Assembly (NCBI RefSeq): GCF_050320075.1 | Contig: NZ_CP190018.1 | Source: Escherichia coli | GTDB lineage: Bacteria; Pseudomonadota; Gammaproteobacteria; Enterobacterales; Enterobacteriaceae | Reading direction: 5' to 3' (one strand) | DNA: 64,000 bases | Shown here: positions 15,346 to 18,300 of the stretch, one piece after another | Layout: every line of letters starts with the position of its first letter | How positions within the stretch are numbered: position 1 is the first letter of the stretch | Position numbers: made by a program

Positions 15346-18300
15346 AGGAGGTTGCTGCGCTCATGGCCTGCACGTCCAGGTAAGGGCAAGCGCGGGGATT
15401 TTCCCCGCGCATCTGACTAGCAGATTCATTTTCTCATGGCACCCCTTTTACACTTCAGTTAGTGCATGTTTTTTTCGATGCACTAATAGAACCATCATTA
15501 CAGACAAATTTGCCGCCTGCCGTACAGTGTGAGATCCCCCCTTTCGAACCAGAACAGGGTTTGCGCCCGGCATCGGCATAAAAGGAAACAAGCGTTCCCA
15601 TAAACAAGATAAGTGCCAGTTTTTTCATATAACCTCCATGGTTTATCGAATCTTATGTTCGATTTGAACGTTATACGCTGGTTTATTTTGATACCGTTGA
15701 TGAGATCAAAGATCGGGCGAATTGATTAAAGATAAGCCAGATGGACGTATGGATAAGGATTATGGTTTTATTTGTCATACAAATAAATATAATAGGCGCT
15801 TCCGATGTAGACCCGTATTCTTCGCCTGTACCACGGGTCGGTTTTAGTACAGGCGTTTTCTTTAAATATCCTTCAGGAACGTTTACGCGGCATCATGCGT
15901 AGAAGTGTGTTGTCCTTCCAGAAATAGTGGTGTGCCAGTGCAGCCGCAGCGTGCAACCCGATGACAAAATATCCCAGATTCGCCAGCATTTCATGCCACG
16001 ACTTTAAGCTATCAACCCGTTCGAAATTGGCCTCTGATGCATAAGGCATCGTCAAACCAAACGCAAACCACGGGTTGCCTCGGTTATACATCATCACCAA
16101 ACCAATCACTGGCAGCGCAATAAACAGGAGATAAATCACCAAATGTCCCAAATGCGCCAGTCCCGTCATCATCGGTTTTGGCTTAGGTATAATCGGCGGG
16201 GTTGGGTATTTCAGCCTTAACAAAAGACGAACGACCATCAGCACGAGAATTGATATGCCACAGGAAACATGAATCATGTTGATGAGTGGCCGATCGCTAC
16301 GTGGGAAGAACCCCCGAAACTCCATTGCGCAATACGCTGCAATAACCAGCAAAAAGACCAGCCAGTGAATGCTGATTTGTAACCTTGAGTATTTATTTTC
16401 CATAACATTTCCTGCTTTAACATAATTTTCCGTTAACATAACGGGCTTTTCTTAAAATTTCATTAAATATTGTTCACCCGTTTTCAGTACGTTACGTTTC
16501 ACGGCAAGAATGTAGATTGCCCATCCCGCCATCCTGGTCTAAGCCTGGAAAGGATCAATTTTCATCCGAACGTTCCTGACAGGAGAAGACCATGAGTAAA
16601 GTTGGTATTAACGGTTTTGGTCGTATCGGTCGACTGGTGTTGCGTCGATTACTTGAAGTCAAAAGCAACATAGACATTGTCGCTATTAATGATCTCACTT
16701 CCCCAAAAATTCTCGCCTACCTGCTGAAACATGATTCAAACTATGGACCGTTCCCCTGGAGCGTTGATTTTACGGAAGATTCACTTATCGTTGATGGGAA
16801 AAGTATCGCGGTTTACGCCGAAAAAGAGGCTAAAAATATTCCGTGGAAAGCGAAAGGGGCAGAAATTATTGTCGAATGTACTGGCTTTTATACCTCCGCC
16901 GAGAAATCGCAGGCGCATCTTGATGCTGGTGCGAAGAAGGTGTTGATTTCCGCCCCTGCCGGTGAAATGAAAACTATCGTTTATAACGTCAATGACGACA
17001 CTCTGGATGGCAACGACACCATTGTTTCCGTGGCGTCATGCACCACTAACTGCCTTGCGCCGATGGCCAAAGCCTTGCACGACAGTTTCGGAATAGAAGT
17101 CGGCACGATGACGACCATTCATGCCTATACCGGCACTCAGTCACTGGTGGATGGCCCGCGTGGTAAAGATTTACGTGCTTCACGCGCAGCGGCAGAAAAT
17201 ATCATTCCCCACACTACGGGGGCGGCAAAAGCCATTGGTCTGGTGATCCCAGAACTGAGCGGCAAACTGAAAGGTCATGCGCAACGCGTGCCGGTGAAAA
17301 CAGGTTCCGTCACTGAACTGGTATCGATTCTCGGAAAAAAAGTGACTGCCGAAGAGGTGAATAACGCACTTAAACAAGCAACCACCAATAACGAGTCATT
17401 TGGTTATACCGATGAAGAAATAGTCTCTTCCGATATCATTGGCAGCCATTTCGGTTCGGTGTTTGATGCCACGCAAACCGAAATTACCGCCGTGGGCGAT
17501 TTACAACTGGTGAAAACGGTCGCCTGGTACGATAACGAATATGGCTTCGTCACGCAGCTTATTCGCACCCTCGAAAAATTCGCTAAACTCTGACGCGCAC
17601 AGGCGGAGGAAAAAACCTCCGCCTCTTTCACTCATTAAGACTGTAAATAAACCACCTGGGTCTGCAGATATTCATGCAGGCCATGTTTACCATCTGCGCC
17701 GCCAATACCGGATTTACGCCATCCGGCGTGGAAGCCTTGCATAGCTTCGAAGTTTTCACGGTTGATGTAAGTTTCACCAAACTTCAGCCCTTTAATGGCT
17801 TTCATCGCGACGTTCAGATTTTGGGTATAGATTGATGAGGTCAGGCCGTAATCACTGTCATTCGCCATTGCGATAGCATCTTCCAGCGTGTCAAATGCGA
17901 CCACTGGCAGAACCGGGCCAAAGGTTTCCTCATGCATAATCGACATTTCCTGGCGAACATCCAGCAGCAATGTCGGCGGATAATAATATCCTTTCCCCTC
18001 TACCGCTTTGCCACCCAACGCCACTCTCGCCCCTTCTTCTACTGCGCGCGCCACTTTTTGCTCGACCCTTTCCAGCGCCGCGGCGTTAATCAACGGCCCC
18101 ATCGCAATGTCGTTGCGTTCTGCGGGGTTACCAAATTGAACCGCCTGCAACGCTTCACCCAGCCGATTGACGAACTGATCATAAATGCCTTTCTGTACAT
18201 AAACACGTTCTGCACAGTTACACACTTGCCCACTATTAATGACGCGTGAATCAACGATGGCTTTGACTGCCAGTTCAAGATCGGCATCGTCCATTACGAT

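Follow-up and report, generated by a model that had tools for sequence, protein, structure and literature searches.

The stretch of Escherichia coli DNA analyzed here (assembly GCF_050320075.1, contig NZ_CP190018.1; 64,000 nucleotides in all, hereafter the window) carries gapC, a glyceraldehyde-3-phosphate dehydrogenase (GAPDH) family gene, between the divergently oriented cybB and the convergent aldA (Table 1). The first-pass annotation had described gapC as one uninterrupted ORF of 333 aa at 16592-17593, equipped with a ribosome-binding site, an NAD-binding motif and a catalytic cysteine region; our analysis recovered exactly these ORF coordinates, together with an AGGAG element ahead of the ATG, a Rossmann motif near the N-terminus and a catalytic cysteine within SCTTNC. 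In the predicted protein, the SCTTNC motif spans residues 149-154 and includes Cys150, the second catalytic residue is His177, and the NAD-selecting acidic residue is present as Asp34 within INDL. An aspartate at this position is typical of NAD-preferring GAPDHs.

Table 1. Positions of gapC, its functional and diagnostic sites, and neighboring features in the window.
Feature	Position	Strand	Remark
IS150	13718-15160		1443 bp; 3-bp target duplication at 13715-13717 and 15161-15163
RydC small RNA	15799-15862	+	Rfam RF00505, 92.5 bits; adjoins cybB as in K-12
cybB (cytochrome b561 / superoxide oxidase)	15873-16403	-	Divergent neighbor; synteny anchor
cybB-gapC divergent intergenic region	16404-16591		Presumed gapC promoter region
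Shine-Dalgarno AGGAG	16581-16585	+	6 nt 5' of the gapC ATG; sequence read directly
gapC CDS	16592-17593	+	Single ATG-start ORF; 333 aa plus stop; unbroken
NAD-binding Rossmann motif of GapC	16604-16633	+	Residues 5-14; GxGxxG pattern present; Pfam Gp_dh_N
Codon 39 of gapC	16706-16708	+	AAA (Lys) in the window; TAA stop in K-12 and BL21
Catalytic Cys150 codon	17039-17041	+	TGC, in SCTTNC
Catalytic His177 codon	17120-17122	+	CAT
A7 homopolymer	17335-17341	+	GGA AAA AAA GTG = G248 K249 K250; A6 in K-12 and BL21
GC-rich hairpin	17601-17624		9-bp stem, 6-nt loop; between convergent gapC and aldA
aldA (aldehyde dehydrogenase A)	17635-19074	-	Convergent neighbor; synteny anchor
ISApl1, upstream copy	21685-22756		Transposase intact, 324 aa
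mcr-1	22942-24567	+	100% nucleotide identity to MCR-1.1
pap2	24639-25361	+	Identical at the protein level
ISApl1, downstream copy	25364-26435		Q27* (C to T at 25529)

The "clean terminator" that had also been reported behind gapC was confirmed in one part and not in the other. The hairpin, located 8 nt 3' of the gapC stop, was strong by folding (dG -18.5 kcal/mol; z = -3.65 versus shuffled sequences), but its T-tract was weak (CTCTTTCACTC), and because of this weak tract the hairpin went unlisted in the consensus terminator scan. It is likely the shared terminator of gapC and aldA. Other terminator-like matches inside the gapC ORF were set aside as chance. On the 5' side, a scan for the sigma-70 consensus upstream of gapC returned nothing above shuffled expectation; the best match (16397-16426, 9/12 positions) was weak and no better than that expectation, and no promoter is therefore claimed for gapC. 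Lateral acquisition of the gene was also considered, and base composition (GC 0.48 and GC3 0.49 for gapC, with 0.493 for the whole window) gave no signal in either direction.

In K-12 MG1655, gapC (b4493; formerly gapC_1/gapC_2, b1417/b1416) lies between cybB and aldA and is annotated as a 1001-bp pseudogene. The order cybB-gapC-aldA was common to the window, K-12, CFSAN061763 and strain 144, and nucleotide alignment of the window and K-12 genes revealed 985 identical positions of 1002 (98.3%; 17 differences), so that synteny and identity together mark the window gene as the positional ortholog of K-12 gapC. The flanks were comparable as well, with the same 41-nt hairpin-containing spacer downstream in K-12 and 181 of 188 positions matching in the cybB-gapC region (7 differ). 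The first-pass annotation had listed K-12 gapC as a pseudogene split by a frameshift or a stop, and the alignment showed both: AAA is replaced by TAA at window position 16706 (K39*), and the A7 run at 17335-17341 is shortened to A6, resulting in a -1 frameshift at codons 248-250. The window gene is thus not in the K-12 state; it is an intact allele of the E. coli gapC locus, with both K-12 lesions absent. In a BL21(DE3) derivative, the gapC sequence was identical to that of K-12 and bore the PGAP flag "frameshifted; internal stop", and the 1002-bp sequence found in the window was annotated by PGAP in complete genomes as an intact "gap" gene (WP_000048646.1).

A run of seven adenines is a typical site of long-read indels, and a miscalled A7 could give a K-12-like pseudogene the appearance of an intact frame. 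Such an assembly artefact is effectively refuted in the present case. The K39* codon is absent too, and the window gene carries 15 other differences from K-12; A7 was found in every intact allele sampled for comparison; and at least 15 complete genomes, each assembled independently, matched the 10 kb around gapC at 100% identity, which makes an assembly error in the A-run very unlikely.

The protein encoded by the intact allele scored 446.7 bits against the NCBIfam equivalog model for type I GAPDH (TIGR01534; cut-off 367.2), with GapC residues 3-325 aligned to profile positions 1-330 of 330, and the Pfam domains Gp_dh_N and Gp_dh_C were both full-length and above their gathering thresholds. 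This score and the full-length domains place the ORF far beyond chance, and the window protein has the family score, the Rossmann motif and the catalytic Cys and His expected of a type I GAPDH. GapA (b1779), the housekeeping glycolytic GAPDH of E. coli, shares with GapC the fold, the SCTTNC motif, a His at the equivalent position and the reaction, whereas it is 47% identical in sequence and is encoded at a different chromosomal locus. GapA is the "eukaryote-like" GAPDH of E. coli, and GapC is of the bacterial type. Against the GapA-type model (NF011954/PRK15425), the window protein reached 301.9 bits, below the cut-off of 662. Epd (GapB, erythrose-4-phosphate dehydrogenase) belongs to the GAPDH superfamily, is similar in length and has detectable homology to GapC, but the window protein lay far under the cut-offs of both Epd models (NF010058, 279.8 vs 539 bits; TIGR01532, 276.5 vs 530.55 bits), and its score of 307.3 bits against the ArsJ-associated GAPDH model also fell short of the cut-off of 450. 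Given the 47% identity to GapA and scores below the GapA-type, Epd and ArsJ-associated cut-offs, GapC is a distinct paralog and not a copy of another GAPDH-family gene, and gapC represents a third GAPDH-family gene of E. coli besides gapA and epd.

The partial scores against the Epd and ArsJ-associated models, and the fact that GapA already serves E. coli glycolysis, could be read as signs that the GAPDH fold of GapC supports a different main activity, namely that of an erythrose-4-phosphate dehydrogenase or of an NADP-dependent or arsenate-related GAPDH. We consider this very improbable, since those scores remain under their cut-offs while the type I GAPDH model passes, Asp34 is present in the window protein, no arsJ adjoins gapC, and an enzyme identical at 332 of 333 residues has documented activity on glyceraldehyde-3-phosphate (G3P), which it oxidises with NAD+ and phosphate (PMC8615399).

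This enzyme is EcGAPDH1 (PDB 7C5F, 7C5G-7C5R/7C7K; Zhang et al. 2020, 2021), which shares Cys150 and His177 with the window protein. The single difference, at residue 29, is a conservative one, with Ile in window GapC and Val in the crystallised enzyme and in most alleles; the crystallised protein additionally carries a 19-residue tag. EcGAPDH1 was described as a homotetrameric NAD-dependent phosphorylating GAPDH, a "type 1 GAPDH from E. coli", and the wild-type enzyme catalyzed NAD-dependent G3P oxidation with a KM(G3P) of 0.73 mM (PMC8615399). In the same study, the C150A variant was inactive, C150S was roughly 10^4-fold less active and H177A reduced activity about 8000-fold (roughly 10^4), and complexes were solved with NAD, G3P, phosphate, the thioacyl intermediate and 1,3-bisphosphoglycerate; the assays were performed at 50 C and pH 10 (PMC8615399) and have little bearing on physiological flux. 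The phosphorylating, NAD-dependent oxidation of G3P by a homotetramer, published for this near-identical protein, is predicted for the window allele. In the reaction, Cys150 would attack G3P, a hydride would then go to NAD+, and phosphate would cleave the thioacyl intermediate to yield 1,3-bisphosphoglycerate.

Judged by its residue-level match to the window product, the protein in the published EcGAPDH1 structures is evidently GapC and not the housekeeping GapA. The name "gapC" occurs 0 times in PMC8615399, which leaves the structural work unlinked to the papers on the "gapC pseudogene", and the introduction of that paper discusses the secreted GAPDH of E. coli as though it and EcGAPDH1 were one protein.

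Comparison among intact alleles also pointed to a working protein. Relative to the window, 12 sampled intact alleles each had 12-34 synonymous changes, against no more than 1-6 that were non-synonymous, and the median pairwise dN/dS among intact alleles, diverged to a dS of about 0.16, was 0.054, a pattern indicative of strong purifying selection. The 332/333 match to a characterised enzyme, this signature of selection, the catalytic residues and the PGAP annotation as intact together lend good support to a catalytically competent GapC, and the earlier description of the gene as "probably functional" holds up on the same grounds.

An intact reading frame could also belong to a cryptic gene, one without useful expression and decaying as it has in K-12. 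Several independent losses of gapC (K39* with the frameshift in about 20%, an IS1 truncation in SCPM-O-B-7615 and absence from 9 genomes) indicate that the gene is dispensable, and no strong promoter was found upstream; both would fit a cryptic gene. However, a dN/dS of about 0.05 implies selection on the protein, and hence expression. In addition, the gapC promoter is reported to be environmentally activated even in K-12 (PMC2949598), and sigma-S RNA polymerase binds the region, with a ChIP-seq peak at gapC_1/cybB in K-12 (PMC4447067). We therefore regard a cryptic gapC as improbable. A study that examined RpoS and cAMP-CRP in carbon-limited cells includes gapC_1 in its table of regulated genes (PMC4512719), and PMC2949598, citing Espinosa-Urgel & Kolter 1998, describes gapC as "intact in environmental isolates" and expressed preferentially in fresh water. 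In the strain analyzed here, expression of the intact gene is probably conditional, either sigma-S-driven in stationary phase or confined to life outside the host, and GapC may be a back-up GAPDH or one for specific conditions, and not the housekeeping enzyme.

To place the window allele within the species, complete E. coli genomes were surveyed; gapC was present in 5417 of 5426, with no gapC match in the remaining 9. Allele frequencies were obtained with short allele-specific megablast probes, designed so as to find no 28-nt seed on the alternative allele. The probe for AAA at codon 39, the window allele, matched 3881 genomes (72%), whereas that for the K-12 stop (TAA) matched 1155 (21%) and the A6 probe for the K-12 frameshift matched 1050 (19%). 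The A7 probe for the window allele returned no match, very probably an artefact of low-complexity filtering and of 20-nt flanks shorter than the 28-nt word, and was discarded; as it was blank even though identical genomes exist, the A7 frequency was derived from the A6 count and the sampled genomes. When 40 evenly spaced gapC matches were sorted by span, 30 measured 1002 bp, seven 1001 bp and two 1000 bp, and one was truncated. Inspection of 14 of the 1002-bp matches found 13 annotated as intact with a 333-aa translation, the exception being TL012, in which K39* occurs alone. Based on the probe counts and on this sample of spans and annotations, intact gapC is the majority state, present in roughly 70% of the E. 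coli genomes sequenced. Five plasmid records, too, matched gapC in full and had codon 39 intact.

The disrupted alleles fell into an ordered pattern. TL012, isolated from a calf, carried K39* without the frameshift, plus R18G; K39* combined with the A6 frameshift was found in K-12, BL21 and the human faecal isolate 582; and the blood isolate ST12468 and the frog isolate ET490 carried both lesions and a further 1-bp deletion (T, gene position 988). By their shared lesions, these alleles form a nested series in which K39* was followed by A7 to A6 and then by the loss at position 988. A separate IS1A-mediated deletion in SCPM-O-B-7615 has removed the 3' 80% of gapC together with the 3' end of aldA. 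Because wild isolates carry the exact K-12 lesions and the K-12 and B genes are identical, inactivation of the K-12 type evidently predates laboratory culture. PMC2949598 uses the usual wording, in which "laboratory strains" "accumulate mutations" in gapC, and the lesions in natural isolates slightly correct this wording.

Collectively, we hold it to be very likely that intact gapC encodes a competent NAD-dependent phosphorylating type I GAPDH and represents the ancestral as well as the majority state, with K-12 and B belonging to a minority natural lineage. In this lineage, the gene would have been inactivated first by K39* and second by the -1 frameshift in the A7 run. With more reserve, we also favor a broader reading, in which the K-12-type lesion is an old natural polymorphism, the role of GapC is real but condition-specific and was dispensed with by one natural clade that included the ancestors of K-12 and B, and the "E. 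coli GAPDH" of 7C5F is an accessory paralog.

The finding of an intact gapC is correct but already known, since it was published in 1998, intact alleles are routinely annotated as such in RefSeq, and the structure and kinetics of the enzyme are in print. Intact gapC in non-K-12 E. coli goes back to Espinosa-Urgel & Kolter 1998, as cited in PMC2949598 and PMC1796617. Among related reports, Citrobacter has both gapA and gapC (PMC6325607), and a K-12 gapC deletion strain was used in PMC3080795, where intact alleles go unmentioned; the "GapC" of PMC9950269 is a streptococcal protein and not E. coli gapC, and was set aside. What is added here is small: how often each allele occurs, the nested series of decayed alleles, evidence for a natural origin of the lesion, and the connection of gapC to EcGAPDH1/7C5F. 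K-12 is unrepresentative at gapC, given that most E. coli would encode a third, active GAPDH-family enzyme, and metabolic models based on K-12, as well as gapA knock-out designs, may fail to carry over to non-K-12 strains of wild, clinical or industrial origin. Outside annotation, the gapC case matters little.

Of more note than gapC is a complete composite transposon of the Tn6330-like kind (ISApl1-mcr-1.1-pap2-ISApl1), which lies on the chromosome at about 21685-26435 and carries mobile colistin resistance. Its insertion point is some 60 bp downstream of the hrpA stop, at a distance of about 4 kb from gapC, and none of the complete E. coli genomes surveyed (5426) had this element at the site. 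On the other side of gapC, the IS150 copy sits in the sokB/hokB-mRNA leader, about 71 bp upstream of hokB (about 15234-15383), and an Rfam "sok" match (13642-13794) crosses its left junction. CFSAN061763, whose gapC allele is identical, lacks this insertion; strain 144 and at least 14 further genomes have it. K-12 also lacks a low-GC stretch, about 1.9 kb long (~20187-21600, minus strand), between ydcF and hrpA, which holds a gene fragment and three short ORFs for hypothetical proteins (125, 149 and 112 aa; GC of the first, 0.35); a Pfam search of the three ORFs gave no match, and the stretch resembles a small islet gained by horizontal transfer. Finally, an uninterrupted ORF of 2163 aa on the minus strand (32384-38875) scored 1914.8 bits against the BigA autotransporter adhesin model, below its cut-off of 3400. 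This BigA-like ORF may correspond to ydbA, an IS-disrupted pseudogene in K-12, and, if so, the window would hold an intact form of a second gene, besides gapC, that K-12 has only in broken form.
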